In this document: one piece after another, positions 13,548 through 58,578 of the stretch
How positions within the stretch are numbered: position 1 is the stretch's first letter
Layout of the letters: the number at the start of each line of letters is the position of its first letter
Origin: Candidatus Moraniibacteriota bacterium
GTDB taxonomy: Bacteria; Patescibacteriota; Minisyncoccia; Moranbacterales; UBA1568
Length of the DNA stretch: 64,000 nucleotides
Direction: 5' to 3'
Assembly (NCBI GenBank): GCA_013334575.1
Contig: JAAXXG010000003.1
Coordinates: forward strand, 12,699-76,698
Program-made: the position numbers and the translations under genes
Notes under the pieces: model-generated
Database searches by the model: none
Seen by the model: only the letters and a program-made list of their open reading frames with translations
What the model was told of the DNA's origin: nothing

Positions 13548-13621
13548 GGGCGATTAGCTCAGTTGGTTAGAGCGCGTCACTGATAATGACGAGGTCCCAA
13601 GTTCGAATCTTGGATCGCCCA
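13548..13621 (+). tRNA. tRNA-Ile (anticodon GAT)
   Basis: It folds as a cloverleaf with anticodon loop CTGATAA. Confidence 0.85.
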
Positions 13622-13651
13622 CATTCCGTCTTCGAGAGGCGGGAAACATAT

Positions 13652-13724
13652 AGCGGGGTAGAGCAGCTGGCAGCTCGTCTGGCTCATAACCAGGAGGTCG
13701 TGGGTTCGAATCCCACCCCCGCAA
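13652..13724 (+). tRNA. tRNA-Met (anticodon CAT; could be elongator Met or Ile2)
   Basis: It folds as a cloverleaf with anticodon loop CTCATAA. There is an A1/A72 mismatch at the acceptor end. It lacks the three consecutive G:C pairs of an initiator anticodon stem. Confidence 0.7.
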
Positions 13725-13912
13725 CAAGGAACGAAGTGACGCAGTGGAGGGGAGAACGCCGACGATTCGGCGTTCGGTGGGATGAGAAGGGATTTCGAAA
13801 GAAATCCCCGGCTCGAAGAGGAAGAAATTCCCTGGGAGGGAATTTTTTCTACTCGCAACAAGCGACAGAAGGAGCCGCGCGAGCGGCTTTCTTCGTCGGA
13901 ACATGAGGATTT

Positions 13913-15769
13913 ATGATCGATGCATCAAAAAAGAATACCGAACCGAAACGTCTCCCGGCAAGGCGGATTTTCGCTTGGTATTGGAAGGTGCTGCGTAAAT
14001 ATCGTCGCCCCTTCCTTTTCGCGGTCGTGAGTTACGGGTTGGCGGCCGTTTCTGGGAGCGTCATCCCGCCGATCATCTACAAGGGGTTGACGGATACGTT
14101 GTCCGGCGCCGGCTCGCCGGAAATTTTCGGGCGCACCGGCGCGTGGGTCTGGGTTTCGGCGCTCGGCTTCAACTATCTCTCGACATACGTCTTTTTCCGG
14201 CTCGGCGATATCTCCTACTTCCGCCCGTACAGCAGGGCCGCAAAGGACCTGGTCGACTCCACCTTCGATCGGATCGAGTCGCGGTCGCACGGATTCTTCG
14301 CCGACCATTTCTCGGGGAGTCTCGTGTCGCAGGCAAGGCGGTATGTCGATTCGTTCGGTTCCCTGTCGGACACGATCATCTACAATATCTGGATGCCGAC
14401 CGTCAACCTGATCGGAAGCCTGATCGGGCTCTTCGTCTTCTCTCCGCCTTTGGCGGCGCTCTTCCTGACCGGTATGGCGATCATGTTGCTTCTTCCACTG
14501 CCGCTCCTCCGCAAGAGGATGTCGTTCGACGCGCTTGAGAGCGAGGAGGATTCCAGGGTGACCGGTCGTCTCGCGGACGTGATCACGAATATCCTGACGG
14601 TGAAGATGTTCGCTTCCGGTTCCGCTGAGCGGAAGTCGTTCCGGGAATTCACCGACCGGCAGGAGCGTGCCCGGGGCATGGCCTATCGGGCGCTCCTGCA
14701 TATGATCATGCTGCAGAACGGACTCGTGCTCGTCTTCCAGTTCGTCGGCATGGCCGCGTCGGTCTGGCTCTGGTCGCGCGGGACGATCACGGTCGGTACG
14801 GTCATCCTCATGCAGGCGTACCTGATGGGTGTCTTCAGTATCGCGAACCAGTTCAACCGTTCCGTTTCCGAGATCCTCCGCTCGCTTGCCCGCGCGTCCG
14901 AGATGGTTGAAATCTTCGAACTGCCACAGGACCTGACCGATCCGGAGCGGCCGGAGGAATGTCGGATCTCGAAGGGACGGATCGCGTTCCGGGACGTCTC
15001 GTTCCGATATCCAGGCGGTGATACCGTCTTCGAGAAGTTTTCCTTCTCCGTCCGTGCCGGGGAGAAGGTCGGACTCGTCGGTCCATCAGGCGGCGGGAAG
15101 TCGACCGTGACCAAACTGCTGCTTCGGTTCGTCGATCCGCAGGAGGGGGCGATCGAGATCGACGGACAGGATATCCGTCGCATCCGGCAGGACGATTTGC
15201 GGGCGCGTATCGCCTACGTGCCGCAGGACCCGCTGCTGTTCCATCGGTCGCTGCGCGAGAACATCGGATACGGCCGAGCGGGCGCTTCCGAAGAGGAGAT
15301 GCTTTCGGCATCGCGACGCGCACATGCGGATGAGTTCGTCGCGCGCCTGCCGGAGGGGTATGACACGCTCGTCGGCGAGCGCGGCGTGAAACTTTCGGGC
15401 GGTCAGCGGCAGCGCGTCGCGATCGCACGGGCGATCCTCAAGAATGCGCCGATTCTCGTACTCGACGAGGCGACGAGCGCGCTTGATTCGGAAAGCGAAC
15501 ATGCGATCCAGGAGGCGCTTGCCGAACTTATGACGGGGAAGACCGCGATCGTCATCGCTCACCGGCTCTCGACCATACGGCGGATGGATAGGATCGTCGT
15601 CCTCGGGAAAGACGGTCGCGTAGAGGAAGAGGGGACGCACGATGAACTTCTGTCCCGGAACGGACACTATGCCTCGTTGTGGGAGCGTCAGACCGGCGGG
15701 TTCATCGATAGCGACGATGTCGAAAACGCAGCCGATTCCGAGTCGGAAGCGTACCCATTGGAAGCCTGA
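13913..15769 (+). CDS. ABC exporter, fused permease/ATPase (MsbA/lipid A exporter-like)
   Basis: It has six N-terminal TM helices, a Walker A (GPSGGGKST), the signature LSGGQRQRVAIARA and a Walker B (ILVLDEATSALD). Confidence 0.9.
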   Translation: MIDASKKNTEPKRLPARRIFAWYWKVLRKYRRPFLFAVVSYGLAAVSGSVIPPIIYKGLTDTLSGAGSPEIFGRTGAWVWVSALGFNYLSTYVFFRLGDISYFRPYSRAAKDLVDSTFDRIESRSHGFFADHFSGSLVSQARRYVDSFGSLSDTIIYNIWMPTVNLIGSLIGLFVFSPPLAALFLTGMAIMLLLPLPLLRKRMSFDALESEEDSRVTGRLADVITNILTVKMFASGSAERKSFREFTDRQERARGMAYRALLHMIMLQNGLVLVFQFVGMAASVWLWSRGTITVGTVILMQAYLMGVFSIANQFNRSVSEILRSLARASEMVEIFELPQDLTDPERPEECRISKGRIAFRDVSFRYPGGDTVFEKFSFSVRAGEKVGLVGPSGGGKSTVTKLLLRFVDPQEGAIEIDGQDIRRIRQDDLRARIAYVPQDPLLFHRSLRENIGYGRAGASEEEMLSASRRAHADEFVARLPEGYDTLVGERGVKLSGGQRQRVAIARAILKNAPILVLDEATSALDSESEHAIQEALAELMTGKTAIVIAHRLSTIRRMDRIVVLGKDGRVEEEGTHDELLSRNGHYASLWERQTGGFIDSDDVENAADSESEAYPLEA

Positions 15770-15866: not shown

Positions 15867-15942
15867 GGATAGTTTTATCGGGTGAACGGCCGTCAGGTCG
15901 TGTCTTCCGGAAAACGGATAACCAGTGAGAGGAAGAAGACGT

Positions 15943-16434
15943 ATGAAACGGGTGAATTCGGTGATGGCCGCCTTGGTCGCCATCGGGATGCTTGCGAATC
16001 CGGCCGTTTCCGCATTCGCGTGCGGGACGTGTCAGGATACGCCGACCCCTCCGTGTCAGGAGAATCCGGTCTGTGGTAATGGCGAGGTCGAAGCAGGCGA
16101 AGCCTGCGACGACGGGAACCGCGACGACAACGATACCTGCTCGAACGACTGCGTGAAGCAGATCGTGAAGGAGGTGCCATTCGAGGTCGTGAAGGAAGTC
16201 CCGGTCGAGGTGGAAAAGGTCGTGACCAAGGAGGTTCCGGTCATCCAGACGGTGACGAACACCGTGGAGAAGGTCGTATACAAGTACAAGCATCATCACG
16301 ACAAGCACAAGAAGAAGTCGTCCAAGAAGCAGGAAGTGCTTCCGGCGACCGGACTTCCGCTTGCCGGTTTCGCGGGAATCGGTCTTGCGGCCGCGGGCGT
16401 GACGGCGGCGGTACGGAAATCGCGGAAGCGGTAA
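15943..16434 (+). CDS. Secreted cysteine-rich surface protein with C-terminal LPXTG sortase anchor
   Basis: It has a signal peptide and a Cys-rich CGNGEVEAGEACDDGN...C..DC domain like the Myxococcus Cys-rich repeat. VKEVP repeats follow. It ends LPATG, then a hydrophobic stretch, then RKSRKR. Confidence 0.75.
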   Translation: MKRVNSVMAALVAIGMLANPAVSAFACGTCQDTPTPPCQENPVCGNGEVEAGEACDDGNRDDNDTCSNDCVKQIVKEVPFEVVKEVPVEVEKVVTKEVPVIQTVTNTVEKVVYKYKHHHDKHKKKSSKKQEVLPATGLPLAGFAGIGLAAAGVTAAVRKSRKR

Positions 16435-16525
16435 TCCGTGCGGAGAGTTCGAGGGACATGCGATGAGCATGTCCTTCCTCCTTCGATCCGTTGCTTCGGC
16501 AAGGGGACGGAGGAGGAAAAAACGT

Positions 16526-17626
16526 ATGAGGGGACGTATCGTATTCATGGAGAGACATTTCGGCAAGTCGGAGCGCGCCCGCGCGGCCGCTTCCGGGCTC
16601 TGGTATCGGATGAAACCGTTTCTCGGTCCGCTGGCCGGGTTTCTTGTCGTCGCTGCCGGCTTCTTTCTCGCGGCGAGCGTCGATTTTTCCGTGATCCGTG
16701 ATGCCGTCGACGGCCTTGCCGGAAAGACGGTCCGGGCGGAATCGTTGTCGCCGGAATGGATCACCAGATATTCGATCGTGATGAACGGGCGTATCCGGCC
16801 GGACGACGATGCCGACCACGACGGACTCGGATTCGTCGCGGAACAGTCGGCCGGGACGAATCCGTACGACGCCGATACCGACGACGACGGTGCGGGTGAT
16901 GCCGAGGAACTTTCCCGCGGTACCGACCCGCTCGGCTCCGGCGAACTCGATACGGACGCGGACGGAATGCCTGATCCGTGGGAGATGGCCAGGGAGCTCG
17001 ACCCGAAGGCGGCCGACGCCGACGTCGATCCGGACGGTGACGGATTGCCGAATATCGGCGAGTACGCGTACGGCACCGATCCGCATCTCTCCGATACCGA
17101 CGGCGACGGGTTCGGCGACGCCGCGGAGATCGGGAACGGGTACGATCCCGACGCTCCCGGCGACACCAAGCCGTCGGTGACCGTCCTTATCGAGAAGGTC
17201 GGCGTCGCGGCACCGATGATCTGGTCCTCGTCCGACGACGACACGAAGATGCTTTCCGATCTCAAGAACGGCGTCATCCGGTATCCGGATTCCGGCGTGC
17301 CGGGTCAGCCGGGAAACGTGATCATCGCCGGTCACAGCAGCAACTACGCGTGGGCGCAGGGGGACTACAATTCCGTTTTCCGCCGGCTTGGCGAACTTGC
17401 GGCCGGAGACATCGTGATCCTGCGTGCCAAGCAGGCCAACGGTCGGACCTTCGATTACCGGTACCGCCTGACCGAGAAGCGCGTTACGACTCCGGACGAT
17501 CCTTGGATCTTCGAGGATGACGGTGCCGACGAGGTGACCCTGAGTACCTGTTGGCCGCTCGGAACCGCCTTCCGCAGGCTTGTCCTGCGCGGCGAGATGG
17601 AGGAGGGCGAGGATTCCGCATCCTGA
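16526..17626 (+). CDS. Sortase (transpeptidase) with N-terminal TM anchor and thrombospondin-type-3-like Asp-rich Ca-binding repeats
   Basis: The catalytic triad context is IAGHSS (His), TLSTC (Cys) and RRLVLRG (Arg). The middle region carries DTDGDG and DxDxDG repeats. GGAGG lies 8 nt upstream of the ATG at 16526. Confidence 0.75.
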   Translation: MRGRIVFMERHFGKSERARAAASGLWYRMKPFLGPLAGFLVVAAGFFLAASVDFSVIRDAVDGLAGKTVRAESLSPEWITRYSIVMNGRIRPDDDADHDGLGFVAEQSAGTNPYDADTDDDGAGDAEELSRGTDPLGSGELDTDADGMPDPWEMARELDPKAADADVDPDGDGLPNIGEYAYGTDPHLSDTDGDGFGDAAEIGNGYDPDAPGDTKPSVTVLIEKVGVAAPMIWSSSDDDTKMLSDLKNGVIRYPDSGVPGQPGNVIIAGHSSNYAWAQGDYNSVFRRLGELAAGDIVILRAKQANGRTFDYRYRLTEKRVTTPDDPWIFEDDGADEVTLSTCWPLGTAFRRLVLRGEMEEGEDSAS

Positions 17627-18262: not shown

Positions 18263-18796
18263 ATGCCGAATCTCTGTTGCTCCACCATTTTCGCTGAGCG
18301 GGTGACGCTCAAGCCGGTCTCGTCCGCGTACGAGGATGCCATTTTCCGCGAGTTCACCGAAGCGGTGGCGAGATACACGTTTCCGAAACCCGCCGATGAT
18401 ATCGAGGGAGTACGCGCGTTCATCGGGGAGTCGCGTGCGAAGATGGAGCGCGGGACGGATCTTGTCGTCGCGGTTATCGACCGGATGAGCGGCGCGTTCC
18501 TGGGGTGTGCCGGACTTCACGGGCTCGATGGGGACGAACCGGAATTCGGGATCTGGCTCGCCGTGTCCGCGCAGGGGAAGGGTATCGGAAAGGAAGTCGT
18601 CTTGGCGCTTCATACGTGGGCGGTAGCCAACCTGCCGCAGCCGTTTCTCCGGTACGTGTCGGACCGAACGAATATTCCGAGCCGAAGGCTTGCCGAAGTG
18701 CTCGGCGGCGTGCCGGTCGGAGAGTCGGTCCTTCCGAACGCTCGCGGCGAATATCTGCCTGTCGTGACCTATCGCGTTCCCAACCGCGTGTCGTGA
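18263..18796 (+). CDS. GNAT family N-acetyltransferase (RimJ/RimL-like)
   Basis: It has the acetyl-CoA binding motif GIWLAVSAQGKGIGKEVVLAL (Q/RxxGxG/A). Confidence 0.7.
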   Translation: MPNLCCSTIFAERVTLKPVSSAYEDAIFREFTEAVARYTFPKPADDIEGVRAFIGESRAKMERGTDLVVAVIDRMSGAFLGCAGLHGLDGDEPEFGIWLAVSAQGKGIGKEVVLALHTWAVANLPQPFLRYVSDRTNIPSRRLAEVLGGVPVGESVLPNARGEYLPVVTYRVPNRVS

Positions 18797-18837
18797 GGGA
18801 TGCCGTATCCGATTGACTCCCTATCAGGCTCCGTATA

Positions 18838-18852
18838 TACTGGGGGGGAGTA
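18838..18852. promoter_or_regulatory. RcnR-type operator TACT-G7-AGTA overlapping the repressor start codon
   Basis: TACTGGGGGGGAGTA matches the TACT-G6-N-AGTA site described for RcnR. It overlaps the ATG at 18852. Confidence 0.55.
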
Positions 18853-19157
18853 TGAATGACGTCTGTCGAAAGGAAGGACGGATCGGTGCCGGAGGCCGTG
18901 GCGCGAATGCGGATCGCGGCTCTTCTTCGTGCGTGCTGCGCCGTCTTTCGCGTATCGAGGGGCAGGTCCGCGGTATCCGGAAGATGATCGAGGAAGGGCG
19001 GGACTGCGAGGCGGTCGTCCAGCAGGTGAGCGCGGTCCGCGAGGCGGTCTCCACGCTCGGACTCGAGCTGCTCCGGGACGATTTCGCCTGCCGGCGTCGC
19101 AAGGGTCGCGAGATCGACGAGCGGTTCCTCCGGTCCCTCTTCCGCATGAAACACTGA
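18852..19157 (+). CDS. CsoR/RcnR/FrmR-family (DUF156) metal-sensing transcriptional repressor
   Basis: LRRLSRIEGQVRGIRKMIEEGRDCEAVVQQVSAVREA is the family helical signature, with a conserved Cys. The protein is about 100 aa. Confidence 0.75.
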   Translation: MNDVCRKEGRIGAGGRGANADRGSSSCVLRRLSRIEGQVRGIRKMIEEGRDCEAVVQQVSAVREAVSTLGLELLRDDFACRRRKGREIDERFLRSLFRMKH

Positions 19158-19166
19158 ACGTTCCCT

Positions 19167-20246
19167 ATGCGATTCCTCGAACGGATTCTCGATGTGATCC
19201 AGTCGCATCTTATGATATGGATCGTCGCGTCGGTCGCGGCGGGACTTCTCGTCTCGTATCTCACGCCGGGGTTCGGATTTTCCGCCCTTATCTGCCTTCT
19301 GGCCGCCCTGGTCATGATCTATCCGTCGCTCGTGCCGCTCTCCTTCGACCGGTTGACGGAGATCGTCGGGCACGGCCGACCGGTCCTTTTTTCTCTCGGG
19401 CTCAACTTCATCGTCTCGCCGGCGATCGCCTACGCGATAGGGTCGGTGTTCCTGTCCGGATTTCCCGAATACCGGCTCGGGCTGACGCTTTTATCGCTTC
19501 TTCCCGGCGGCGGAATGGTGACGACCTGGGCCACGCGCTCCAAGGCCGACATGCCGGCGACCGTCGGTATCATTCTTGCGAACCTTGCCGTTGCGGTCCT
19601 CATCGTTCCGCTTTCGTTCCCGATTCTCGTCCGGGACTCCTTTTTGCCCGGCTCCGACGCGCTTCCTTCGGTATCCGAATCGTCAGCCTGTCCGCTCGGT
19701 CAGGCGACTGCCGGTGTCGTCACCTGCGGCGCAGCCGTTTCCGCAGGTATCAGTCCTTGGAAGATCGCGGTTCCCATCCTCTTCATCGTCGTCGTTCCGG
19801 CCGTACTCGCCTGGCTTACGCAGAGAGTTTTACTCCGTCGCGGCGGTATCGCCCTGCTCGATCGGGCGAAGGTCCTCTTCGGGAAGGCGGGGAACGCGGG
19901 TCTCGTTATCGTGCTGTTCGTACTCATGGGGCTTCATGCGAACCGTGAGATCCTGACCCGTCCTTCCGATATCCTGCCGGCTATCGTTCCGGTCGTCCTG
20001 TTCTACACGGCGTTGTTCCTGGTTGCCGGGTTCGCTGCCGGACGGATCGCCGACACCGCGGTTCGGAGGGCGTTCTTCTGGGGATCGTCGCTCCGGTATC
20101 TGACGCTCGCTCTCGGACTCTCCATCTCATTCGCGTTCCAGAATCCGGACATGCTCCGGATGTCGGTCGTGGTCGTCCTTTCGTATCTGGTGCAGATTCC
20201 GGCGTCGTTTCGGGTCGCGCAGCGGATGCGGCGCGCGGAATCCTGA
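19167..20246 (+). CDS. ACR3/BASS-family (bile acid:sodium symporter fold) metal(loid) efflux permease
   Basis: It is a ten-TM protein with an SLLPGGGMVTTWATRS motif. It lies directly downstream of the RcnR-like repressor. Confidence 0.5.
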   Translation: MRFLERILDVIQSHLMIWIVASVAAGLLVSYLTPGFGFSALICLLAALVMIYPSLVPLSFDRLTEIVGHGRPVLFSLGLNFIVSPAIAYAIGSVFLSGFPEYRLGLTLLSLLPGGGMVTTWATRSKADMPATVGIILANLAVAVLIVPLSFPILVRDSFLPGSDALPSVSESSACPLGQATAGVVTCGAAVSAGISPWKIAVPILFIVVVPAVLAWLTQRVLLRRGGIALLDRAKVLFGKAGNAGLVIVLFVLMGLHANREILTRPSDILPAIVPVVLFYTALFLVAGFAAGRIADTAVRRAFFWGSSLRYLTLALGLSISFAFQNPDMLRMSVVVVLSYLVQIPASFRVAQRMRRAES

Positions 20247-20403
20247 ACGGCATCCCGGCGGAACGGACGGAAGGGTACGTCCGTCGCGCCGGGGAGGCGT
20301 TCCCCATCGTTCCGGCCGACGAGCCGGTACGTGGTATAATCTCACGCGTAATCAGATCGGGATCCGCGACTCGGGCACGAGGCGCGTCGTTCCGGAAAAC
20401 GAT

Positions 20404-20736
20404 ATGAGCAAGGTAGTGGTCCTGACGGACAAGACGTTCGAGGAGGAGGTTCTCAAGTCGGAGATGCCGGTCCTCGTCGATTTCTGGGCACCGTGGTGCG
20501 GGCCTTGCCGGATGATGGCTCCGGTGCTCGACGAGCTTTCCGAGTCGCTCGACGGCAAGCTGAAGGTGGCGAAGCTCGACGTGGACGATGCGGCGCACCA
20601 GGCGCTCGCGATGCAGTACCGCATCCAGAGCATCCCGGCGCTCAAGCTCTTCAAGGGCGGGCAGGTCGTGAAGGACTTCGTCGGGTTCCGCCCGAAGGAC
20701 GTGTTCGAGGTCGAGCTTGGCAAGGAGCTCCAGTAA
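20404..20736 (+). CDS. trxA: Thioredoxin
   Basis: It has the WCGPC active site and is 110 aa. An extended -10 TGgTATAAT lies upstream at about 20331. Confidence 0.9.
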   Translation: MSKVVVLTDKTFEEEVLKSEMPVLVDFWAPWCGPCRMMAPVLDELSESLDGKLKVAKLDVDDAAHQALAMQYRIQSIPALKLFKGGQVVKDFVGFRPKDVFEVELGKELQ

Positions 20737-20757: not shown

Positions 20758-21687
20758 ATGGAACGGAAAGAGGAATACCCGCTCGCCATCATCGGGGCCG
20801 GTCCGGCGGGTCTGTCGGCTTCCATCTACGCTTCCCGCTACGGAGTCGATCATATCGTGATCGGTCATCTTCCCGGCGGCCAGATCTCCGAGACGCATGA
20901 GATCGACAACTATCCCGGCGTGGACGCGGCCGGCGGGTTCGAGTTCGCCGAGTCGCTGATGGCGCACGCGCGCAAGTTCGGCGCGCCGATCGAGAGTCGG
21001 ATGGTCGTCGGTGTACGGAAGGAAGACGGCGCGTTCGTGCTCTTACTCGACGGCGGTTCGACCGTCCGCTGCCGGGCGCTTCTTTTGGCGACGGGTACGA
21101 AGCGGCGCGCGCTCGGTATCCCGCGCGAGGACGAGTTCGTCGGTCGCGGCGTGTCGTACTGCGCGACCTGCGACGGGTTCTTCTACCGCGGGAAGACGGT
21201 CGCGGTCATCGGCGGGAGCAACAGCGCCGCCGGCGCCGCCCTCTACCTGTCCGATATCGCGGCGAAGGTCTATCTCGTCTATCGCGGTGACGAGCTCCGC
21301 GCGGAGGCGCATACCGTGAACCGGCTGCGGGAGAAGGGAAACGTCTCGATCATCCTCGGAACGAACGTCGTATCCCTTTCCGGAACGGAGACGCTGACCT
21401 CGGTCACGCTCGACCGGCCCCATGACGGATCGGAGGCGCTTCCGGTCGACGGACTCTTCATTGAGATCGGATCGGACCCGAGCGCCGACTTCGCTCGCGA
21501 CCTCGGGGTCGAGACCGACGAGTCCGGATTCGTGAAGGTCTCGGCCGACATGACGACGAACGTTCCCGGAGTCTTCGCGGCCGGGGACCTGACCGACGGA
21601 TCGGCCAAGTTCCGGCAGGTGGTGACGGCCGCCGCGGAAGGGGCGATCGCCGCGCGGAGCATTCACGCGTACCTGTCACGATCCTGA
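20758..21687 (+). CDS. trxB: Thioredoxin reductase
   Basis: It has FAD/NAD(P) Rossmann motifs (GAGPAG, GGGNSA) and the redox CATC motif. Confidence 0.9.
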   Translation: MERKEEYPLAIIGAGPAGLSASIYASRYGVDHIVIGHLPGGQISETHEIDNYPGVDAAGGFEFAESLMAHARKFGAPIESRMVVGVRKEDGAFVLLLDGGSTVRCRALLLATGTKRRALGIPREDEFVGRGVSYCATCDGFFYRGKTVAVIGGSNSAAGAALYLSDIAAKVYLVYRGDELRAEAHTVNRLREKGNVSIILGTNVVSLSGTETLTSVTLDRPHDGSEALPVDGLFIEIGSDPSADFARDLGVETDESGFVKVSADMTTNVPGVFAAGDLTDGSAKFRQVVTAAAEGAIAARSIHAYLSRS

Positions 21688-27683: not shown

Positions 27684-28397
27684 ATGAAAACGATCATGCA
27701 AAACCGATCCTTTTTGTCCGGAATCCGTTTCGCGGCTTTCGCGTCCGCCGTTTTGACGTTCACGCCGACGCCGTTTTCCAGTCACGCATCCGCAGCAACC
27801 ACATGCTCTCCAACGGTTACGGTCACGGATACCGGGAAAACGTCCGTCAAACTCAAGGTCGCCTGTAGCAATCTCGTCAGTACGAAAGTAAGCGTGCGGT
27901 TATTGGCTACCAATGAGGAAACCGGCAAGGATTCGAAAAAAACGGTTACGGCGAAGCTTGGAAAAAAAGGGACGGTGACCATTAAACTCTCGGGACTCGA
28001 TTCGGCCACGGGCTATTCCTTCAAGGCGAAAGTGAAAAAGAACGGAGGTGCGTACGGGGCCTATTCCGATGTGGTCGAGGCGACGACCGAAGGGGCTGAT
28101 TACGATGTATCGATCGAAAAGATTAGCAGCATTACCGAGAGCTCCGCGAAACTCCGCATCACCTGCGAAGATCTCGAAGATGAGGATGTGACGCTGATGG
28201 TCGCGTACAAGAAAAAGACGTCCTGGTCGACGAAGACGTATACGCTGACTTTGGACGGCGACGGCGAAGGGGTGGTCACGGTCGACGGACTCAAGTCGGA
28301 TACGGCATACAGTTTCAAGACGAGGATCAAGAAGGACGATGATTCGATTTATTCCCGGTATTCGGAAGAGAAGTCGGCGACGACCGACGAAGATTGA
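27684..28397 (+). CDS. Secreted protein with two fibronectin-type-III-like repeats
   Basis: It has a signal peptide. Two ~90-aa repeats end GLDSATGYSFKAKVKK and GLKSDTAYSFKTRIKK. Confidence 0.55.
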   Translation: MKTIMQNRSFLSGIRFAAFASAVLTFTPTPFSSHASAATTCSPTVTVTDTGKTSVKLKVACSNLVSTKVSVRLLATNEETGKDSKKTVTAKLGKKGTVTIKLSGLDSATGYSFKAKVKKNGGAYGAYSDVVEATTEGADYDVSIEKISSITESSAKLRITCEDLEDEDVTLMVAYKKKTSWSTKTYTLTLDGDGEGVVTVDGLKSDTAYSFKTRIKKDDDSIYSRYSEEKSATTDED

Positions 28398-28419
28398 GGT
28401 ACTCATTGAACGAACACAT

Positions 28420-28770
28420 ATGACCGCTTCGCCTAGAGGGCTCTCGTTCGCCGCCGCAGGCATCGTCATGACGGCACTCATTATCGGCGGATGGTATGTC
28501 GTATTCAGAGATACCGATACGGTGAAAACCGGCTCGGTCGGCAAGGAGCGGGTTTCGGAAACGACTTCGCAGACGACTCCCTCAGCCGCTGTTTCCTCCG
28601 GGTCGGAACCGCAGGAGAAGGAGCTTCCGGCGAAAAGTACCGGCGTGCTCGTCGGTGCGTCGGCAATCCGGGATGAGTCCGACGATTCCGCCGCCCGAAA
28701 AACACAGGAGGATGATGAGGCCGATACCGATGACGGTATCTCCGTCGATGTGGAGACCGAGGAGGAATAA
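28420..28770 (+). CDS. Single-pass membrane protein with Ser/Thr-rich and acidic C-terminal tail (hypothetical)
   Basis: It starts MTASPRGLSFAAAGIVMTALIIGGWYVVF. An upstream GTG/ATG at 28339 is an alternative start. Confidence 0.4.
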   Translation: MTASPRGLSFAAAGIVMTALIIGGWYVVFRDTDTVKTGSVGKERVSETTSQTTPSAAVSSGSEPQEKELPAKSTGVLVGASAIRDESDDSAARKTQEDDEADTDDGISVDVETEEE

Positions 28771-28972
28771 CGGATTAGAATATTTCGTGGTTCCTACCGA
28801 TGATACCGAGCCTCTTTTTCTCGGGATAAGAAGGGGTCGGTATCGTTTATGAATGGCGGGTCCGGAGAGGGTGTCAGAAGCTTTTTTCTTGTCGCCGAGA
28901 GGCGATAGCACCGACGCGCCTGCCTGGCAACGGGTCAGGCGTTTTTCGATAAAACCCCTAAATTCCCGAAAA

Positions 28973-29038
28973 TCCTTGCCTTTTCGCCCAGGAAGGGTAT
29001 GGTGGAGGTGTTGGTGTCTAAAAAAGGTACCTGTCCAC
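28973..29038 (+). repeat. M1 promoter/leader repeat, copy 3
   Basis: It reads TCCTTGCCTTTTCGCCCAGGAAGGGTATGGTGGAGGTGTTGGTGTCTAAAAAAGGTACCTGTCC. Confidence 0.6.
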
Positions 29039-29167
29039 TTTTCTGTTTTGACCCCTTTTCTGTTTCGCAGGGGAATCCCTCTTTCTGCGAAAAACTCATA
29101 AGGGAGAGACTCGTGGTCTTCATGGAATGAGCAATCTAAATTGCCCGATTTGCATTTGGCATAAAGT

Positions 29168-30190
29168 ATGGAAAAATTCACCCGATTAACTCCGGAAAAT
29201 AAAACCTCAGGTATTGATAGGATACTGGGATTAGATCCTGAAGACGAGGTCGATATAAAAAAATATTTTTCGGAACTTTGTAAAAGAGAAAGCTTGGAAG
29301 TGTTTGCAAAAGAACCAAGTTTGGAGTTTAAAGAAATTTTTCCTAGCATAAATTCTTGTTTGCGAGAATTCCTTGAAGGATATGGAATAAGGCCTTTGGA
29401 TGTTTCATTATCTCAAATAGTATTTTTGGACAAGGAAAAACTTTCAGAAGGGCAGAGGTTATATTTTGAAAAAAGAAAAACAAACGCCTTTTATCATTCA
29501 AGATCGCAGAAAATCGTTCTTTTTAAGGATTGGAACGGGAATTCCAAACTAGCCGTTCTTCATGCGCTGGTGCATGAAATGGTTCATATGCAAGCTTTTG
29601 AAGCTTGGCAAAAAATTCCCAGGGAGCAAGAAGATGAAAGGGATTTCATTGTAAGTAAAGGTGATAGAAGTATACGTCTCGATCTCAGGAGATTAGGATT
29701 CAGGATGGTAGATAAAGATAGAGAAATTACGTATTTTCATGATTTAGATGAGGCGATTACCACGGAATTAACGATGCGTTTTGACTGGCAATATCTCGAA
29801 AGATTCCCCGAATTATCGGAGGAAATCAAAGAAAGAAGAGGTGTCATATTGGCGTACGCAAAAAGAAATAACTCTTCATTTGAACAAGAGAGAAGACATG
29901 TCGCGGAAATCGAGCATGAGCAATTGGAAAATGGAATAAAAAAAGTTAAGATAAATGGATATTCTTACGATCAAGAGCGAGAAAAATTCTTGATGCTGCT
30001 TGATGGGATATATAAAAATAGCTCGGAACGATTCGCCTCACCTGAAAATGTTTTCAAAGAATTTGCAACAGCGGCATTGACTGGAAATGTTTTGACAATC
30101 GCTCGCGTTATTGAGGGCGTGTATGGAAAGGGGTCTTTTCGCTATCTAGGCGAGAAAACGGCCGATAAAAGAAGCTCCGATACTGAATAG
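29168..30190 (+). CDS. Putative zinc metallopeptidase (HExxH), low-GC gene
   Basis: It has the motif AVLHALVHEMVHM (HEMVH). The gene is markedly AT-rich compared with its flanks. Confidence 0.4.
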   Translation: MEKFTRLTPENKTSGIDRILGLDPEDEVDIKKYFSELCKRESLEVFAKEPSLEFKEIFPSINSCLREFLEGYGIRPLDVSLSQIVFLDKEKLSEGQRLYFEKRKTNAFYHSRSQKIVLFKDWNGNSKLAVLHALVHEMVHMQAFEAWQKIPREQEDERDFIVSKGDRSIRLDLRRLGFRMVDKDREITYFHDLDEAITTELTMRFDWQYLERFPELSEEIKERRGVILAYAKRNNSSFEQERRHVAEIEHEQLENGIKKVKINGYSYDQEREKFLMLLDGIYKNSSERFASPENVFKEFATAALTGNVLTIARVIEGVYGKGSFRYLGEKTADKRSSDTE

Positions 30191-35461: not shown

Positions 35462-36112
35462 ATGAAACTATATCTTTCATCATACAAACTTGGGAACGAT
35501 ATCGAGGCCCTGAAAGGGCTTGTCCCCGCCGGGAACAGGAAGACGGCATTCATCCCGAACGCTCTCGATTTTTCCACTGATTCCGAACGGCGGGAGAAGA
35601 GCGAACGATCCGATGTCGAGGATTTGTCCGCGTTGGGTCTCGAGGTGGAACGATTGGATCTGAGGGACTATTTCGGCCTGCAGTCGGAACTGGAAACGAA
35701 GCTCGGTGATTTCGGCGTCATCTGGGTACGCGGCGGAAACGCGTTCGTACTTCGGAAGGCGATGAAGAAAAGCGGTTTCGATGAAATACTCCGGCGTTTC
35801 GTGGGGAAGAAGGAATTATTGTACGGGGGATATAGCGCGGGAATCTGCGTGTTGTCACCAACGTTGGAAGGGATAGACCTTGTCGACGATCCTTATGTAG
35901 ACCCGTACGGAGACCCTTCCGCGGCGTCGTTCGAAGGCCTCGGAATCGTTGACTATTCCATAGTCCCTCATTATCGGTCCGATCATCCGGAATCGGCGAG
36001 TATCGAAAAGGTCGTCGAATATCTTGAAGAAAAAGGGATCCGATATAGGACGCTCCGGGACGGGGACGTGATAATCTCGGAGGTTTCGGAGGAGTCCGCT
36101 GTGCGGGTCTGA
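35462..36112 (+). CDS. Peptidase S51 (dipeptidase E/cyanophycinase-like), paralog 1
   Basis: It has the VRGGNAFVL motif and the nucleophile context YGGYSAGICV. An upstream in-frame ATG at 35399 is an alternative start. Confidence 0.65.
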   Translation: MKLYLSSYKLGNDIEALKGLVPAGNRKTAFIPNALDFSTDSERREKSERSDVEDLSALGLEVERLDLRDYFGLQSELETKLGDFGVIWVRGGNAFVLRKAMKKSGFDEILRRFVGKKELLYGGYSAGICVLSPTLEGIDLVDDPYVDPYGDPSAASFEGLGIVDYSIVPHYRSDHPESASIEKVVEYLEEKGIRYRTLRDGDVIISEVSEESAVRV

Positions 36113-36191
36113 ATGATGGTCGGGTGCGTCTGAGCGAGGAATCCGATTTAGGAGGTGGGGAATCGTGGAGAAGCATGCCGAGAGCTGAACT

Positions 36192-37058
36192 ATGGAATAT
36201 TCGGACCTGGTACGCGACGTATTTTCGGATGGGGAGAAAAAGCGGTTCATAACCGACAGTCTTCGCGACTCGATGACCCGTCTCGGGTTCTCTGGCGCTC
36301 TGCGCGACGAATTCCTGCGAAACATCGATACGCTTACCGTTGCCGATTTTATCGGGCGACATAAAAACGAGCTCCAGCGGGTTCAGAACGAACATTTTTT
36401 CGGGGAGTTGGTGCCGGTATATTTCAAAGAGAACGTGGTTCCCGAAATACCGGCCGGGGGCAAGGTGCTTGATCTGGGATGCGGTCCCGCCATCCTGATC
36501 CGCTGTCTCATCGAACGGGGAACGAACCCGGAAATCGTCGGTTCGGATATCGCGGCCGACCCGCGCTGGAGCGGCATCGTTCCCGAAGATGCGCGGCTCG
36601 AAGTGGTACGGGAGTCCGAATTTCTTCCATATCTGAAACGGGAGCAGCCGGACCATGTCGCGGCGACGTGGGTATTCCATCACATGGAATACGCGGAGCA
36701 GGAACGATACCTGTCCGCGCTTCACAACGCCCTCAAGCCGGGGGCGACGCTTGTCGTGTTGGAAGACTCGTATTCGGAGGTCCTCCTGCCCGAGTCCGGC
36801 AGAGAGCGAGCCCTGGCGTTCATGCGGTGGAGCCCCGAGGACCGGCACAAAATCATGGGAGCGCTCGACTGGATTGCCAACCGGATTTTCAGCATGCGGA
36901 CCTCGATGCCGGTGCCGTTCGCGTATAGGACCCTGGAAGGCTGGGCAAAAGTTTTCGAGGAAGCCGGATTTTCGGTGAAAAAGACCAGATTCCTGGGATT
37001 TCCAGACAACAGGGATATACATACTCCCCAGAGCCTGATCGTCGCCGAGAAGCGATAG
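36192..37058 (+). CDS. Class I SAM-dependent methyltransferase
   Basis: Motif I is VLDLGCGPA. Post-I is VGSDIA. Motif II/III is LVVLED. Confidence 0.65.
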   Translation: MEYSDLVRDVFSDGEKKRFITDSLRDSMTRLGFSGALRDEFLRNIDTLTVADFIGRHKNELQRVQNEHFFGELVPVYFKENVVPEIPAGGKVLDLGCGPAILIRCLIERGTNPEIVGSDIAADPRWSGIVPEDARLEVVRESEFLPYLKREQPDHVAATWVFHHMEYAEQERYLSALHNALKPGATLVVLEDSYSEVLLPESGRERALAFMRWSPEDRHKIMGALDWIANRIFSMRTSMPVPFAYRTLEGWAKVFEEAGFSVKKTRFLGFPDNRDIHTPQSLIVAEKR

Positions 37059-37258
37059 CACGACGCGCCTGCCCGGCAACGGACCGGGCGTTGTATTTTT
37101 AGTATCCTTGTTATTTTTTCCTAGAGGGGATATCGTAAAAAGGAAGTAACATTAGGTGGTAATACAGCTGCAAGAAACCGTTTCGGGCCGAAAAATCAAA
37201 AGAAAATTGATCTGCTTGTCATGTACGAGCATTTGTTTGTAGTCCAATAAATATAGAA

Positions 37259-38317
37259 TTGCAAAAATATATGGCAAAAAAAAATAAAAAAATAGAAGTC
37301 GTCGATCTTTTTAGTGGAGTAGGTGGTTTAACATACGGCTTAAGAAAGTCAGGATTGTCAGTTTTGGCTGGCATTGATAACGACCAATCATGTGCATATG
37401 CATATGAGAAAAATAATAAGGCAAGGTTTTTATCTGTTGATATATCGAAGTTTGATTTTAAAGAATTGAATAAAATTTATTCGAGGAACAGTGTTCGAGT
37501 ACTTGTTGGGTGCGCTCCGTGTCAACCCTTTTCTTCTCATGCTTATAAATTACGTAAAGACGAAAGTGACGTGCGCTGGAACTTGCTCAGTCATTTTATT
37601 AGAGGAATAAAAGTCGTCAAACCGGATATTGTTTCAATGGAGAATGTTCGAGGAGTTACGAAAACTGATGTATTTAAGAACTTCGTGAGTGAACTTGAAA
37701 AACTTGGTTATAAAGTTGATTGGAAAGTTGTATATGCACCAAATTATGGTGTGCCACAAAATCGAAGCCGCCTTATTTTGCTTGCTTCAAGACTTGGTGA
37801 AATTTCTATACCAAAAGAAACTCATACAAAAGACAATTATGTTACTGTTGGCGATGTCATTCGTGAGTTGCCAAGGATTGAAGCAGGGGAAGCATCAAAG
37901 CAGGATAAATTACATCAAGCAAAGAAGCTGGAACTTATAAATGAAAGGCGTATTTTGCAATCGAAGCCTGGTGGCACTTGGCGCGATTGGGATAAGAGTT
38001 TATTGCCGAATTGCTATAAAAAAGATAGTGGACAAACGTACACATCGGTATATGGACGTATGAAGTGGGAGGACGTATCGCCGACGATTACCACGCAATT
38101 CACAAGTTACGGATCCGGGCGATTTGGACATCCTGAACAGAATCGAGCGCTTTCAATTCGTGAGGGTGCGCTTTTGCAAACATTTCCCATTGATTATGAC
38201 TTTGGAGATTTTCCGGCTGCAAAATTGAGTCGACATATTGGTAATGCAGTGCCTCCTCAGTTGGGTGTTGTAATTGGAAGGCAAATAAAGAAACACATTG
38301 AAATCTATGGAAAGTGA
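37259..38317 (+). CDS. DNA (cytosine-5)-methyltransferase (Dcm type), AT-rich gene
   Basis: Motif I is VVDLFSGVGG. Motif IV is GCAPCQPFS. Motif VI is ENV. Motif VIII is QNRSRLIL. Motif X is GNAVPP. Confidence 0.9.
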   Translation: MQKYMAKKNKKIEVVDLFSGVGGLTYGLRKSGLSVLAGIDNDQSCAYAYEKNNKARFLSVDISKFDFKELNKIYSRNSVRVLVGCAPCQPFSSHAYKLRKDESDVRWNLLSHFIRGIKVVKPDIVSMENVRGVTKTDVFKNFVSELEKLGYKVDWKVVYAPNYGVPQNRSRLILLASRLGEISIPKETHTKDNYVTVGDVIRELPRIEAGEASKQDKLHQAKKLELINERRILQSKPGGTWRDWDKSLLPNCYKKDSGQTYTSVYGRMKWEDVSPTITTQFTSYGSGRFGHPEQNRALSIREGALLQTFPIDYDFGDFPAAKLSRHIGNAVPPQLGVVIGRQIKKHIEIYGK

Positions 38318-39953
38318 AAAGTATACATTTAATATATCCCTGAGCGTTTTAAATCATCTTGGCAGAAATTTATATCGCAGCTTTGTTACGATACTTGGTG
38401 AGGGTATTTCTAATGCTTGGGACGCTGACGCGGACAGCGTTTATATTTACTACGATTCCGAAAATCAAACCTTATGCATCATGGACGATGGTGCTGGTAT
38501 GAGTTCTGAGGATTTTCAGGGTAAATTTCTACGTGTAGGCTATACAAAACGAAAAGGTTGTGGCCTAACAAGCCCTGGAGGGCGTCATTTTATTGGGCGT
38601 AAAGGGATTGGAAAGCTAGCACTTCTGTCTGCCGCTCAAACTGTAACAGTCATAACTAAGACCAAAGATGGCGAGTTTGTTTGTGGTGTTATTGATAACG
38701 GCGGATTGGACGAGGCTATTGATGAGGACACACAACAGGCTGATTATCCACTAGGTACGGTTGATCCTATCGCTTTTCTAGAGGAAAAGAATATAAGGAT
38801 TAACAAATCAGGTACCGTCGTTTGGTTTGATGGGTTGAAAGAAAAAGCAAGCCATAGTTTTGATTTTATAAAAAAATCTCTTGCTCTTTACTTTAGATTT
38901 TCATTGCAGGACTCAAATTTCAAAATATATTTTAATAATGAATTGGTCACGGTGAAAGAATTGCAAGGACTTTGTGATAGAACTCAGTTTTTATGGCAAC
39001 TCAACGATTCATTCTCTGATGATTTTATAAATCAAATGAGTCCAAAAAGAACTGATGTAATACTTGATGATCAAAAAATAACGGGGTTTATTGCATCTGT
39101 TAATGAGCCTAGAGACAGAAACATATTTGGCTCAGGAGAACGTGTTGGTATTGATGTGTTTGTGAACGGACGCATTAGAGAAGTTGATATACTAAAACAC
39201 TTTCCTCGATCACGTATCCCCGAGCAATATTTATATGGACAAGTTCATCTAAACGATTTCGACAATGACGAAGTTGACCGGTTTACAAGCAGTCGTGAAG
39301 GAATACATGTTGATGATCCTGATTTTAAAATAATTCGTGAAAAACTTGGCGAAGTAGTTAATTCCATTATTAAACAATGGGATGTTTGGCGGCTTGAATT
39401 GAGAGAAGAGGGAGATAGCGATAACGAGGAAAATCTTAAAAAAGAGCAACGATATTCAAGAAATTTATATAACCAAGTGGCCTCAAAATATGTGCCAGCG
39501 TCTGAACAAGCCGATACGGTCAGACAATGGGAACATGAGCTGGAGAAAGACGCCGAATTAAATCTTCGTTCGTATGCAGAATGCTTCATCTCTGAAAATT
39601 TGGTTAGAAGGTATTGGCAAGAGAAAGAAATTAATCCAGACCAAAACTCATCGCAAGAAGTAAGTCATTGGAGAAACTGTGAGACAAGAGACAAAAATCA
39701 GGCAAATATATCAATAGATATACGTCTTGATAACGATGACAAATACTACATTGGAATGGAGAACTTAGCGCGACAAGCAGAGGCTCCGGGAGCTGCTGGT
39801 TCTGGTAACGCTAGTTTGCCACATGATGCAAAGGCTTTTGCGCCGTTGAGAAATGCAGTTATGCACACTTCTTTACTCACAGATCAAGCAAAAAGTAGAT
39901 TAACTACAGTCCTGGATAATATAAGAGGGCGGATTAAAACTTTGCTTCAATAA
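38298..39953 (+). CDS. MORC/HATPase_c_3-type GHKL ATPase (551 aa) with C-terminal Rx4H HEPN-like motif
   Basis: The N-box reads EGISNAWDADA, G1 reads IMDDGAGMS and G2 reads GRKGIGKLA. The C-terminus has LRNAVMH (Rx4H). Its start overlaps the dcm 3' end by 20 nt. The gene is AT-rich. Confidence 0.6.
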   Translation: MKSMESEKYTFNISLSVLNHLGRNLYRSFVTILGEGISNAWDADADSVYIYYDSENQTLCIMDDGAGMSSEDFQGKFLRVGYTKRKGCGLTSPGGRHFIGRKGIGKLALLSAAQTVTVITKTKDGEFVCGVIDNGGLDEAIDEDTQQADYPLGTVDPIAFLEEKNIRINKSGTVVWFDGLKEKASHSFDFIKKSLALYFRFSLQDSNFKIYFNNELVTVKELQGLCDRTQFLWQLNDSFSDDFINQMSPKRTDVILDDQKITGFIASVNEPRDRNIFGSGERVGIDVFVNGRIREVDILKHFPRSRIPEQYLYGQVHLNDFDNDEVDRFTSSREGIHVDDPDFKIIREKLGEVVNSIIKQWDVWRLELREEGDSDNEENLKKEQRYSRNLYNQVASKYVPASEQADTVRQWEHELEKDAELNLRSYAECFISENLVRRYWQEKEINPDQNSSQEVSHWRNCETRDKNQANISIDIRLDNDDKYYIGMENLARQAEAPGAAGSGNASLPHDAKAFAPLRNAVMHTSLLTDQAKSRLTTVLDNIRGRIKTLLQ

Positions 39954-40128
39954 AGAAACTCACTCGCGTTATCAGGTCTTTGAGCGCGTGCTGTTAGGTG
40001 TTAGGGTAGGTCAGGCACAAGTAAATTAACTTGTGCGTTAGTGTAAACCGCTTTGAATGTCGGCAAGAAAATGGGTCAGTTACTCTTTCGAAGAGGATTT
40101 TTGAACCCATTGGCGGCTCGTGACCCGG

Positions 40129-40385
40129 AACGTGTTTCCTGATAGAGTGGTGAAAATACGTAGCGGGAAATAGTGATGAAGCGTATCCGGACCATCGTCC
40201 TTACCGGCGGGCCGTGCGGCGGCAAGAGCACGGTCCTGCGGGCCTTGCGCGAGGAATTCGGCGACCGGCTGGTGCCGGTGCCGGAGGCGGCGACCGTCCT
40301 CTTCGAGGGTGGTTTTCCGGTTCCCGGCCGCGATATCGAATGGAGCGAGGAGTGGCGGGAGGCCTTCCAACCGGCCGTGTTACAT
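40129..40385 (+). repeat. Copy 1 (~257 bp) of the promoter plus 5' end of the 43917 P-loop kinase gene
   Basis: It is about 95% identical to 43862-44120 and then diverges. Confidence 0.8.
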
Positions 40386-40415
40386 CTTTTCGGGGAGGAT
40401 GTTACATGTCTCTAG
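40176..40415 (+). pseudogene. Truncated N-terminal fragment (~70 codons) of the AAA_28-type P-loop kinase
   Basis: MKRIRTIVLTGGPCGGKSTVLRALREEFGDRLVPVPEAATVLFEGGFPVPGRDIEWSEEW is identical to the 43917 gene product. Unrelated sequence and a stop follow. Confidence 0.7.
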
Positions 40416-40518
40416 GGGGATATGTTACATCTTTTTTAGGCTTATATCGGTTTCTTTTGCTTTAATAAGGCATTTGTGCTACGATCTCGTTACATGATTT
40501 CAATCCTCTAGCACATCT

Positions 40519-41661: not shown

Positions 41662-41741
41662 AAACCCGTAAAAGAACGACCTGGTCCGGAAAAGGTGTCA
41701 GGTGCTTTTGACTGATGTCAGATGGCCGAGGGGCGTAAACG

Positions 41742-41846
41742 CCGTGACCCGGACCGCGTTTCCTGATAGAGTGGGGAAAATACGTAGCGGGAATCGATGA
41801 AGCGTATCCGGACTATCGTCCTTACCGGCGGGCCGTGTAGAGCCCT
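41742..41846 (+). repeat. Copy 2 (~105 bp) of the kinase promoter plus first ~30 codons
   Basis: It reads CCGTGACCCGGACCGCGTTTCCTGATAGAGTGGGGAAAATACGTAGCGGGAATCGATGAAGCGTATCCGGACTATCGTCCTTACCGGCGGGCCGTG. A TAG follows. Confidence 0.8.
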
Positions 41847-41891
41847 TTATGAATAGGTGGGGGTTGATTGAGTACTTAGTAAGGTATCTTT

Positions 41892-42464: not shown

Positions 42465-42505
42465 TTTTGAGTCTGTGTATTTTAGGATAAACCTGTCGCG
42501 GAACC

Positions 42506-42604
42506 CGTGACCCGGACCGCGTTTCCTGATAGAGTGGGGAAAATACGTAGCGGGAATCAATGAAGCGTATCCGGACTATCGTCCTTACCGGCGGGCCGTG
42601 CGGC
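42506..42604 (+). repeat. Copy 3 (~100 bp) of the kinase promoter plus first ~30 codons
   Basis: It is a near-identical paralog of 41742-41846. Confidence 0.8.
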
Positions 42605-42691
42605 AAAAAAGGGCCGGTCACCTCTTTTGCCCGGAGTGGGATCGCGATAGTGTCGGTATCGATAAAAGTTGCATGACACTTTTCTGCAGGA

Positions 42692-43795: not shown

Positions 43796-43916
43796 TTTCA
43801 GAAAACGTACCTTGTACTTCTCGAATGAAGTATCAGGGTCGAATTTTCGGGAGGCAAGGAACCGTGACCCGGACCGCGTTTCCTGATAGAGTGGGGAAAA
43901 TACGTAGCGGGAATCG

Positions 43917-58564: not shown

Positions 58565-58578
58565 GTGAATTATATCCG

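Follow-up and report, generated by a model that had tools for sequence, protein, structure and literature searches.

What does a small repressor of the CsoR/RcnR family sense in a bacterium of the candidate phyla radiation (CPR), and which genes does it serve? The question is raised by a locus in a 64,000-nucleotide stretch of Candidatus Moraniibacteriota DNA (contig JAAXXG010000003.1; the whole stretch is called the window, and positions are counted within it), where a G-rich palindrome overlaps the start codon of such a repressor and a permease gene follows. A sequence-only reading had seen in it a metal(loid) efflux unit under an RcnR-like sensor. The residues and gene partners assembled here suggest another answer: rather than a metal sensor, the repressor is most likely a switch that responds to redox or sulfur stress. 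Much of bacterial diversity falls within the CPR, whose members are mostly uncultured and largely fermentative, and to our knowledge almost nothing is known of their gene regulation or of how they cope with oxygen and sulfide.

Considered together, the evidence gives reasonable confidence in a predicted CPR/Patescibacteria-specific, autoregulated thiol-switch repressor of the CsoR/RcnR superfamily that would answer to persulfide or disulfide stress and control a thioredoxin system. The conserved partner of the repressor is trxA-trxB, often with gdh (glutamate dehydrogenase, GDH), and not the permease, which is a recurrent accessory found only in a minority of regulator loci. The argument turns on the following features of the window.

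18813 to 18818, + strand: -35 hexamer TTGACT, from a promoter consensus scan
18836 to 18841, + strand: -10 hexamer TATACT, overlapping the left operator arm, from the promoter consensus scan
18837 to 18853, + strand: predicted operator, a 17-bp dyad ATACT-GGGGGGG-AGTAT with the core TACT-G7-AGTA at 18838-18852, of the form TAC-N9-GTA
18852 to 19157, + strand: repressor of the CsoR/RcnR family (PF02583/DUF156), 101 aa, Pfam E 2.8e-20
19167 to 20246, + strand: BASS-fold permease (PF01758 SBF), 359 aa, beginning 9 nt after the repressor stop
20245 to 20302, + strand: very stable hairpin straight after the permease stop, with no U-tract, from RNA folding
20332 to 20340, + strand: extended -10 element TGgTATAAT of an operator-free trxA promoter, from reading of the sequence
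20404 to 20736, + strand: trxA, thioredoxin with the WCGPC motif, PF00085 E 4e-32 and TIGR01068 116 bits (cutoff 96.8)
20758 to 21687, + strand: trxB, low-molecular-weight thioredoxin reductase with the CATC motif, TIGR01292 323.7 bits

The neighbours of the repressor in the window are a GNAT acetyltransferase, the permease, trxA, trxB and a patatin-like protein.

The operator and its orthologues

The 15-mer TACTGGGGGGGAGTA at 18838-18852 on the + strand matches the form TACT-G6-N-AGTA published for RcnR (quoted in PMC3902906), and its final A is the first base of the repressor ATG at 18852-18854. The sequence-only reading was right on both counts, and also in taking this position to imply autoregulation. 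The 15-mer has no other match in the 64-kb window even at up to two mismatches, and dinucleotide shuffles average 0.12. It lies on a near-consensus promoter, TTGACT-17 bp-TATACT, that matches 10 of 12 consensus positions in the promoter scan. The -10 hexamer forms the left arm of the dyad; the expected start site falls in the G-tract, and the start codon in the right arm. Because the -10 box ends 10 nt 5' of the ATG, transcription is predicted to begin near 18848-18852 and to give a repressor mRNA with little or no leader. The GGAG that stands 1 nt from the ATG is too near to act as a Shine-Dalgarno or ribosome-binding element.

Orthologous loci, gathered by protein identity and by a genome scan, carry the same element. 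The 17-bp pattern ATAC[CT]N7[GA]GTAT occurs exactly once per locus, always at the regulator promoter, in 13 of 13, so the absence from orthologous loci that the sequence-only reading had named as refuting is not seen. Positions 1-4 (ATAC), 12 (G12) and 14-17 (GTAT) of the operator alignment are invariant across the 13 loci, and positions 5 and 13 covary perfectly, as T..A in five loci and C..G in seven. A TTGAC box lies 24-28 nt 5' of the operator in 12 of the 13. Close relatives show the form TATACT-N3-GGGGAGTATG and distant ones ATATACCCC-N3-AGGGTATAT. A position weight matrix detects a second strong site in none of the orthologous loci, and an operator before trxA was found in no locus examined. 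One locus, L085, retains TATACTCTAGGGGAGTATG, with the same AGTATG, yet its true start codon lies 20 nt farther downstream, which indicates that the right arm is kept as operator and not as start codon. In that locus and in all distant orthologues the GTAT right arm is 19-40 nt 5' of the start codon. The palindrome is predicted from sequence to be a genuine CsoR/RcnR-family operator, with a defined extent of 17-21 bp (operator DNA ATATACTGGGGGGGAGTATGA).

Other candidate sites in the window do not add to this picture. The sequence-only reading had proposed a search for further TACT-Gn-AGTA sites; none with a G-tract is present in the 64-kb window, where the looser pattern TACT-N5-9-AGTA adds one unrelated match at 59820 (TACTTCATGAAGTA), rejected as a second operator for want of that tract. 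A candidate at 38391 (ATACTTGGTGAGGGTAT) lies within an open reading frame (ORF), has imperfect arms and a low matrix score, and was put down to chance. An inverted-repeat finder is silent at 18700-19000 because the dyad arms are shorter than its seed length. Elsewhere, a perfect palindrome at 13825-13845, AAATTCCC-TGGGA-GGGAATTT, stands between a tRNA cluster (13548-13724) and an ABC-transporter ORF (13913-15769); it matches the operator matrix weakly (score 10.4) with differing arms, and may be the site of another regulator or a terminator.

Thioredoxin genes beside the repressor

The link to thioredoxin is evident from the gene orders that follow the regulator (reg) in orthologous loci, SBF denoting the permease.

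L001, L003, L005, L012, L013: reg, then trxA-trxB
L006, L008, L009, L011: reg, then gdh-trxB
L010: reg, then SBF-trxA-gdh-trxB
L085: reg, then SBF-trxA-trxB-gdh
P0147 contig: reg, then SBF-gdh
L007: reg, then trxA only

Of 11 clade loci, 10 encode TrxB and 8 encode TrxA downstream of the regulator. Genes for TrxA, TrxB, GDH or the BASS-fold permease occur within 4 kb at none of 71 control loci that encode other CsoR-family proteins. A protein-blind route leads to the same genes: metagenome contigs were scanned with the DNA pattern TTGAC-N18-19-TATACT-N3-GGGGAGTAT, which returned 45 loci, and nearly all of those with enough sequence have a CsoR-family gene just downstream. Most of these loci continue with trxA-trxB(-gdh), and the G7 version of the operator, as in the window, is the commonest among them. 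The Trx-linked subclades are 25-42% identical to the window repressor and differ in gene order, so the linkage has survived deep divergence.

The linkage follows one residue of the repressor. Members of the family are classified by a W-X-Y-Z fingerprint of ligand positions, and Y (X+25) was tallied for all fetched loci with at least 700 nt downstream of the regulator.

Y is Asp or Glu: Trx-linked in 25 of 25
Y is His: Trx-linked in 0 of 66
Y is Tyr: Trx-linked in 0 of 5
Y is Gln or Arg: Trx-linked in 2 of 2

An acidic Y therefore predicts thioredoxin linkage perfectly in the gathered data (25/25 as against 0/71 for His or Tyr). The operator has no such predictive value. In L098 and L133 the same operator precedes classical C-H-C CsoR genes as tandem copies, ATACTCC(A/C)GGGGAGTAT-G-TATACTCT(T/A)GGGGAGTAT, with copper-efflux-like neighbours. 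In L096, L105, L106 and L115 the same promoter and operator lead into a small zinc-ribbon gene (MPxYEYxCxxCG...) and then an x-C-Y-C CsoR-family gene, a pair that shows no thioredoxin link in these four loci. Since one operator stands before C-H-C and x-C-Y-C clades alike, the effector cannot be told from an “RcnR-type” operator sequence. The form TACT-Gn-AGTA thus fails as the RcnR marker for which the sequence-only reading had taken it, since TATACT-N3-GGGGAGTAT precedes Cu-type C-H-C and other CsoR clades. The proteins encoded downstream in L133 look copper-efflux-related, and the “RcnR-like” TACT...GGGGAGTA form serves Cu-type CsoRs too.

How tightly operator and thioredoxin genes are joined varies along the family. 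In distant orthologues (L006, L008, L011, L012, L013) intergenic gaps of 14-28 nt make a plain operon. In the window the 102-nt stretch 20244-20345 folds at -58.1 kcal/mol (z = -4.5; 0 of 200 shuffles as stable), and the hairpin within it, at 20245-20302, is a possible terminator or insulator. Another Moranbacteria permease locus has a strong hairpin (z = -5.1) in the like place between permease and trxA (L010:4109-4169). Alignment upstream of trxA shows GTATAAT and a leader hairpin conserved in Moranbacteria-type loci. This 5' leader (20332-20403 in the window, and in L001, L005, L109, L110, L113 and L128) has the hairpin gcgaCTCGG...CCGAGgcgcgtcg...gaaaaa-ATG; the window copy matches no Rfam family. 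The trxB score falls slightly under the TIGR01292 equivalog cutoff of 343.45, which, with the frequent gdh neighbour in orthologous loci, draws attention to the cofactor preference of the enzyme.

A proposed sensing site and thiol switch

Membership of the superfamily is secure. The repressor scores 72.9 bits against PF02583, a family titled metal-sensitive transcriptional repressor (gathering cutoff 22.8, E 2.8e-20), and it shares the conserved Cys at X and the G-tract operator overlapping the promoter. The start at ATG 18852 agrees with a 98%-identical Candidatus Moranbacteria protein (P0001) from a metagenome-assembled genome (MAG). Alternative starts were rejected: TTG 18813 is the -35 box, GTG 18933 truncates helix 1, and ATG 18856 is out of frame. 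Relatives form a tight clade of 19 proteins at E <= 5e-17, followed by a gap to 1e-9, and all named members are Moranbacteria. Nine orthologous genome loci bear other CPR labels, except for three probable mislabels. Of these, L005 is labelled “Candidatus Fimivivens”, and it agrees with the Moranbacteria window in gene order and in its proteins (65-88% identity); L006 and L008 are labelled “Bdellovibrionales” but bear the CPR-clade regulator, the operator and the gdh-trxB order. All three are probably mis-binned or mislabelled MAG contigs.

Characteristic residues of the repressor are R31-L-S-R34, Q58, C52 (X), D76/D77 (Y) and C80 (Z), with C5 and C27 in addition. In a 20-member clade alignment C52, C80 and Q58 are invariant. 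Among PDB sequences the repressor matches Geobacillus CsoR (4m1p) best (E 1.2e-10), and the HMMER alignment of the two places C52 at the first Cu ligand, Asp76 at the His ligand (His75) and C80 at the second Cys. An ungapped MAFFT alignment puts Asp77 at the His position, and Y is acidic in either. Across the clade Y is D, N, G or E, and never His.

The sequence-only reading had called for a W-X-Y-Z comparison with RcnR, FrmR and CsoR, and this comparison tells against an RcnR-type site. References were confirmed by exact look-up (E. coli RcnR, P0187; E. coli FrmR; M. tuberculosis CsoR; S. aureus CstR), and alignment with the verified RcnR gives x-C-D-C. The RcnR fingerprint H-C-H-H consists of His3, Cys35, His60 and His64; the repressor has no His in residues 1-100, which makes such a site impossible. 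Nor does it have the FrmR fingerprint Pro2-Cys35-His60 (P-C-H-x), as its N-terminus is MNDV, a segment variable in orthologues, and Y is not His. All three NCBIfam matches lie far under cutoff (RicR 48.9 bits vs 175, RcnR NF011613 40.8 vs 138, FrmR NF008464 37.7 vs 133). The DNA-binding motif RLSR is of the RLXR type of CsoRs, and RcnR has RASK (PMC3902906). What the repressor does possess is the CstR-type x-C-x-C dithiol pair at X and Z (C52, C80), the fingerprint assigned to persulfide sensors (PMC8643695).

The X-to-Z spacing is 28 in the window protein, 27-29 in the clade and 29 in every verified RcnR, CsoR and CstR reference. Such variation would be more in keeping with two Cys that crosslink than with a fixed metal chelate. 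In three further regulators (L112, L119 and L134) the X Cys is replaced by Phe, Tyr or Leu, two N-terminal Cys lie 29 and 23 residues upstream, and the Z Cys is kept, which suggests that the sensing pair has been relocated; L112 is Trx-linked, and L119 and L134 have too little downstream sequence for this to be judged.

CsoR-family proteins are tetramers, and the window repressor presumably is one as well. In the proposed switch, the reduced tetramer would bind the dyad ATACT-G7-AGTAT. Since the dyad extends over the -10 box, predicted start site and start codon, binding would block RNA polymerase at TTGACT-17-TATACT; the overlap is observed, and the occlusion is the expected consequence. Sensing would fall to Cys52 and Cys80' from two subunits, with the acidic Asp76/77 where metal sensors carry His. 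Oxidation or persulfidation may then join subunits through di- or polysulfide links, as in CstR, lowering DNA affinity and relieving repression. Family-wide, the output would comprise the repressor itself and a varying set of trxA, trxB, glutamate dehydrogenase (a likely source of NAD(P)H) and the BASS-fold permease. In the window the permease, which starts 9 nt past the repressor stop, would be coupled directly and has the strongest claim of any gene to control by the operator; trxA-trxB would probably have basal expression and at most read-through induction. Induced Trx/TrxR, fed by GDH-derived NAD(P)H, could repair damage and re-reduce the sensor, closing a negative feedback loop by analogy with SigR-RsrA-trxBA and OxyR.

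The inducer is rather probably persulfide or another reactive sulfur species, or else general disulfide stress, two possibilities that are not separated here. There are precedents for such chemistry. Trx/TrxR remove sulfane sulfur, and in E. coli the sulfane-sulfur-sensing OxyR induces thioredoxin and glutaredoxin (PMC6831875). In the CsoR-like protein TTHA1953, disulfide formation lowers DNA binding (PMC10318464). SigR-RsrA/trxBA of Streptomyces and OxyR/trxC-grxA of E. coli are functional analogues only, in which a thiol sensor induces Trx and Trx resets the sensor. They too have trx genes that combine a stress-responsive and a basal promoter, but their regulators, a zinc anti-sigma factor and a LysR activator, are unrelated to the proposed CsoR-family repressor.

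The closest characterised relatives in kind are the CstR proteins of S. aureus, E. faecalis and S. pneumoniae/S. mitis (PMC8643695), which share the PF02583 fold, the x-C-x-C pair, the lack of His at Y and a repressor site that overlaps the promoter. The form ATATACCCC-N3-AGGGTATAT of distant orthologues is nearly the S. mitis cst operator ATATACCCTTATGGGGTATAT (PMC8643695). The window repressor is nevertheless only 28-29% identical to SaCstR and falls in a clade of its own, restricted to CPR/Patescibacteria and known here from sequence alone. Y is Asp or Glu where CstR has Asn, and the second Cys is at X+28 (27-29 in the clade) instead of X+29. The regulons differ as well, with trxA, trxB, gdh and the BASS permease in place of sqr, rhodanese, cstB, tauE and coaP.

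Several points weigh against a thiol switch that controls thioredoxin. The effector chemistry is deduced only from residues and gene context. The contrast of 25/25 with 0/66 is phylogenetically non-independent, because the loci were gathered by similarity to the query or its operator. Typical CstR targets (sqr, persulfide dioxygenase, rhodanese, tauE, coaP) are not found among the genes annotated beside the regulators; sulfur genes adjoin only relatives of the permease. Compared with characterised family members, this repressor has its second Cys one residue earlier, and two Cys together with a carboxylate could still form a site for a thiophilic metal or As(III). A conserved promoter without an operator serves trxA in the window and its closest relatives, and between the permease and trxA of the window stands a strong hairpin, so that the operator would add to trxAB expression there only through read-through. 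Tight coupling of operator and trxAB appears confined to the more distant orthologues.

A broader proposal is put forward tentatively: that repressors with x-C-[D/E]-C, flexible Cys spacing and a short helix 3 may form a previously unrecognised CsoR/RcnR class, a dedicated CPR regulator of TrxA, TrxR and an NAD(P)H-supplying GDH, and that the co-regulated C-x11-C permease may represent a new redox- or sulfur-linked transporter family. The fold, the operator logic and the type of dithiol site are known; the fingerprint, the regulon and the phylogenetic home are new. In the searchable literature, full-text searches returned no paper that links CsoR/DUF156 proteins to thioredoxin regulation or to CPR bacteria. 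A 2021 family-wide network analysis (PMC8643695) leaves several clusters uncharacterised, and its main text makes no mention of thioredoxin. If the switch is as proposed, it would be the first thioredoxin regulon for the CsoR/RcnR family and among the first regulons defined in CPR bacteria. It would also be a compact one, with a 17-21 bp operator, a repressor of about 100 aa, two candidate sensing Cys and an output of Trx, TrxR, GDH and permease.

The permease and the alternative effectors

The permease belongs to PF01758 (64.8 bits, E 1.1e-17) and is identical (100%) to a Candidatus Moranbacteria MAG protein. Its AlphaFold model (mean pLDDT 86, pTM 0.84) matches ASBT_NM (3zux) and NTCP structures in Foldseek, 3zux with the highest target-normalised TM-score (0.83). 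The model confirms the ten-helix BASS/ACR3-type fold with discontinuous transmembrane helices 4 and 9 (TM4 and TM9), as the sequence-only reading had proposed in setting the protein apart from RcnA. A PDB search with the permease sequence gives no match, and neither does TIGR00841. It is a member of a CPR-specific subfamily of about 65 database clusters with the signature LLPGGGMVTTWA and invariant C43, C175 and C187, the last two forming a C-x11-C loop between the protein halves.

In five of ten contexts examined (the window, L010, L085, L128 and the P0147 contig) the permease comes directly after a CsoR-like regulator. Elsewhere it lies between a YgaP-like transmembrane protein and a rhodanese (L088), near a peroxiredoxin (L091), or close to another kind of CsoR-like gene accompanied by an RND pump (L086), and L087, L092 and L093 have no informative permease neighbours. 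Its closest plasmid-borne relative, in Halorubrum (L090), is beside DUF302, DoxX and a CoA-disulfide-reductase/rhodanese fusion. The sulfur-gene neighbours of these relatives hint at a sulfur-containing substrate, and the substrate of the permease itself may be a sulfur-containing anion.

An arsenite or antimonite unit, in which As(III) would bridge the repressor Cys, the ACR3-like permease would export it and Trx/TrxR would support a Trx-coupled arsenate reductase, has several points in its favour. Some known ars operons include genes for thioredoxin and thioredoxin reductase. By sequence, the annotated proteins closest to the permease are ACR3 transporters (24-29% identity), TIGR00832 is its sole NCBIfam match, and the two share the ten-helix BART/BASS fold of ASBT_NM with discontinuous TM4 and TM9. 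The closest regulator subgroup also has three Cys (C27, C52 and C80), a number that suits As(III). The TIGR00832 score, however, is 76.3 bits against a cutoff of 282.8, and a bona fide ACR3 of Gordonia, encoded in an arsR-acr3-arsC cluster, scores 440.9. ACR3 transporters depend on an essential TM4 Cys (R-C-I-A-M-V) and an essential TM9 Glu. In alignment with the bona fide ACR3, RCIAMV stands opposite PGGGMV, with Gly for the Cys, and the TM9 Glu opposite an invariant Thr313; because both essential residues are replaced, the permease is not an ACR3, from which it is further set apart by LLPGGGMVTTWA, the C-x11-C loop and partners in redox or sulfur metabolism rather than ars genes. The third Cys does not co-occur with the permease, since L010 and L085 have the permease and no C27 equivalent, and neither arsC nor arsR is found among the annotated neighbours. 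The permease occurs in a minority of regulator loci. On balance an arsenite unit is improbable. The wider notion of a metal(loid) efflux unit, put forward by the sequence-only reading, falters likewise, since most orthologous loci have no permease, the permease is without the Cys and Glu of ACR3, and the conserved partners are trxA, trxB and gdh.

A Cu(I)-sensing CsoR variant with its His ligand replaced is quite unlikely. Likeness to the Cu(I)-CsoRs of B. subtilis, Streptomyces and Geobacillus extends over the best PDB match, the RLXR motif with its conserved Gln, the TAC-N9-GTA dyad and the placement of the operator over the promoter; that dyad anchors binding in Streptomyces CsoR, whose type 2 consensus ATATACCCCTNAGGGGTATAT is almost the operator form of distant orthologues (PMC3902906). 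Two Cys can also bind Cu(I), and the Cu-type CsoRs of L098 and L133 share the operator form. Yet the x-C-H-C set is lacking: Y is Asp, Asn, Gly or Glu throughout the clade, and the fetched C-H-C proteins are never Trx-linked (0/66). The partners are thioredoxin genes, and neither copA nor copZ is present among the annotated neighbours of the window gene or of the loci with gene tables. Moreover, x-C-x-C proteins of the CstR type are not regulated by Cu(I), although they bind it in vitro (PMC8643695).

It is very unlikely that TACT...AGTA is symmetrical merely because a -10 box (TATACT) is followed by a conserved start context (GGAGTATG), with no protein site at all. The left arm is indeed the -10 hexamer, and the right arm includes GGAG and the ATG. 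A start context would not explain, however, why GTAT is conserved 19-40 nt upstream of the start in L085 and all distant orthologues, or why the arms covary as C..G or T..A; GGAG is too near the ATG for a Shine-Dalgarno element, and the form fits experimentally defined CsoR and CstR operators (PMC3902906, PMC8643695).

Least credible, and extremely unlikely, is an autoregulated RcnR-like Ni(II)/Co(II) sensor in control of a metal(loid) efflux permease: the sequence-only reading was right as to the family (PF02583) and the operator, whose core of TACT, G-tract and AGTA with 7 bp between the arms is an exact match to TACT-G6-N-AGTA (PMC3902906), and a membrane transporter is translationally adjacent, but the repressor has no counterpart of His3, His60 and His64, carries RLSR and not RASK (PMC3902906), reaches 40.8 bits against the cutoff of 138 and has a single site with none further nearby where E. 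coli RcnR has tandem sites, while clades with differing fingerprints use this operator too, most orthologous loci lack the permease, and neither an RcnA-type gene nor any other gene for metal efflux lies nearby.

Two observations concern the rest of the window. At 15925-16434 it encodes a secreted protein that ends in LPATG, a hydrophobic stretch and RKSRKR, which is a sortase sorting signal, and directly downstream, at 16463-17626, is a sortase gene with bacterial TSP3 repeats. The GC content is 0.40-0.48 at 28000-30000, 36000-44000 and 58000-62000, as against 0.60-0.65 elsewhere, and these segments may be horizontally acquired islands.

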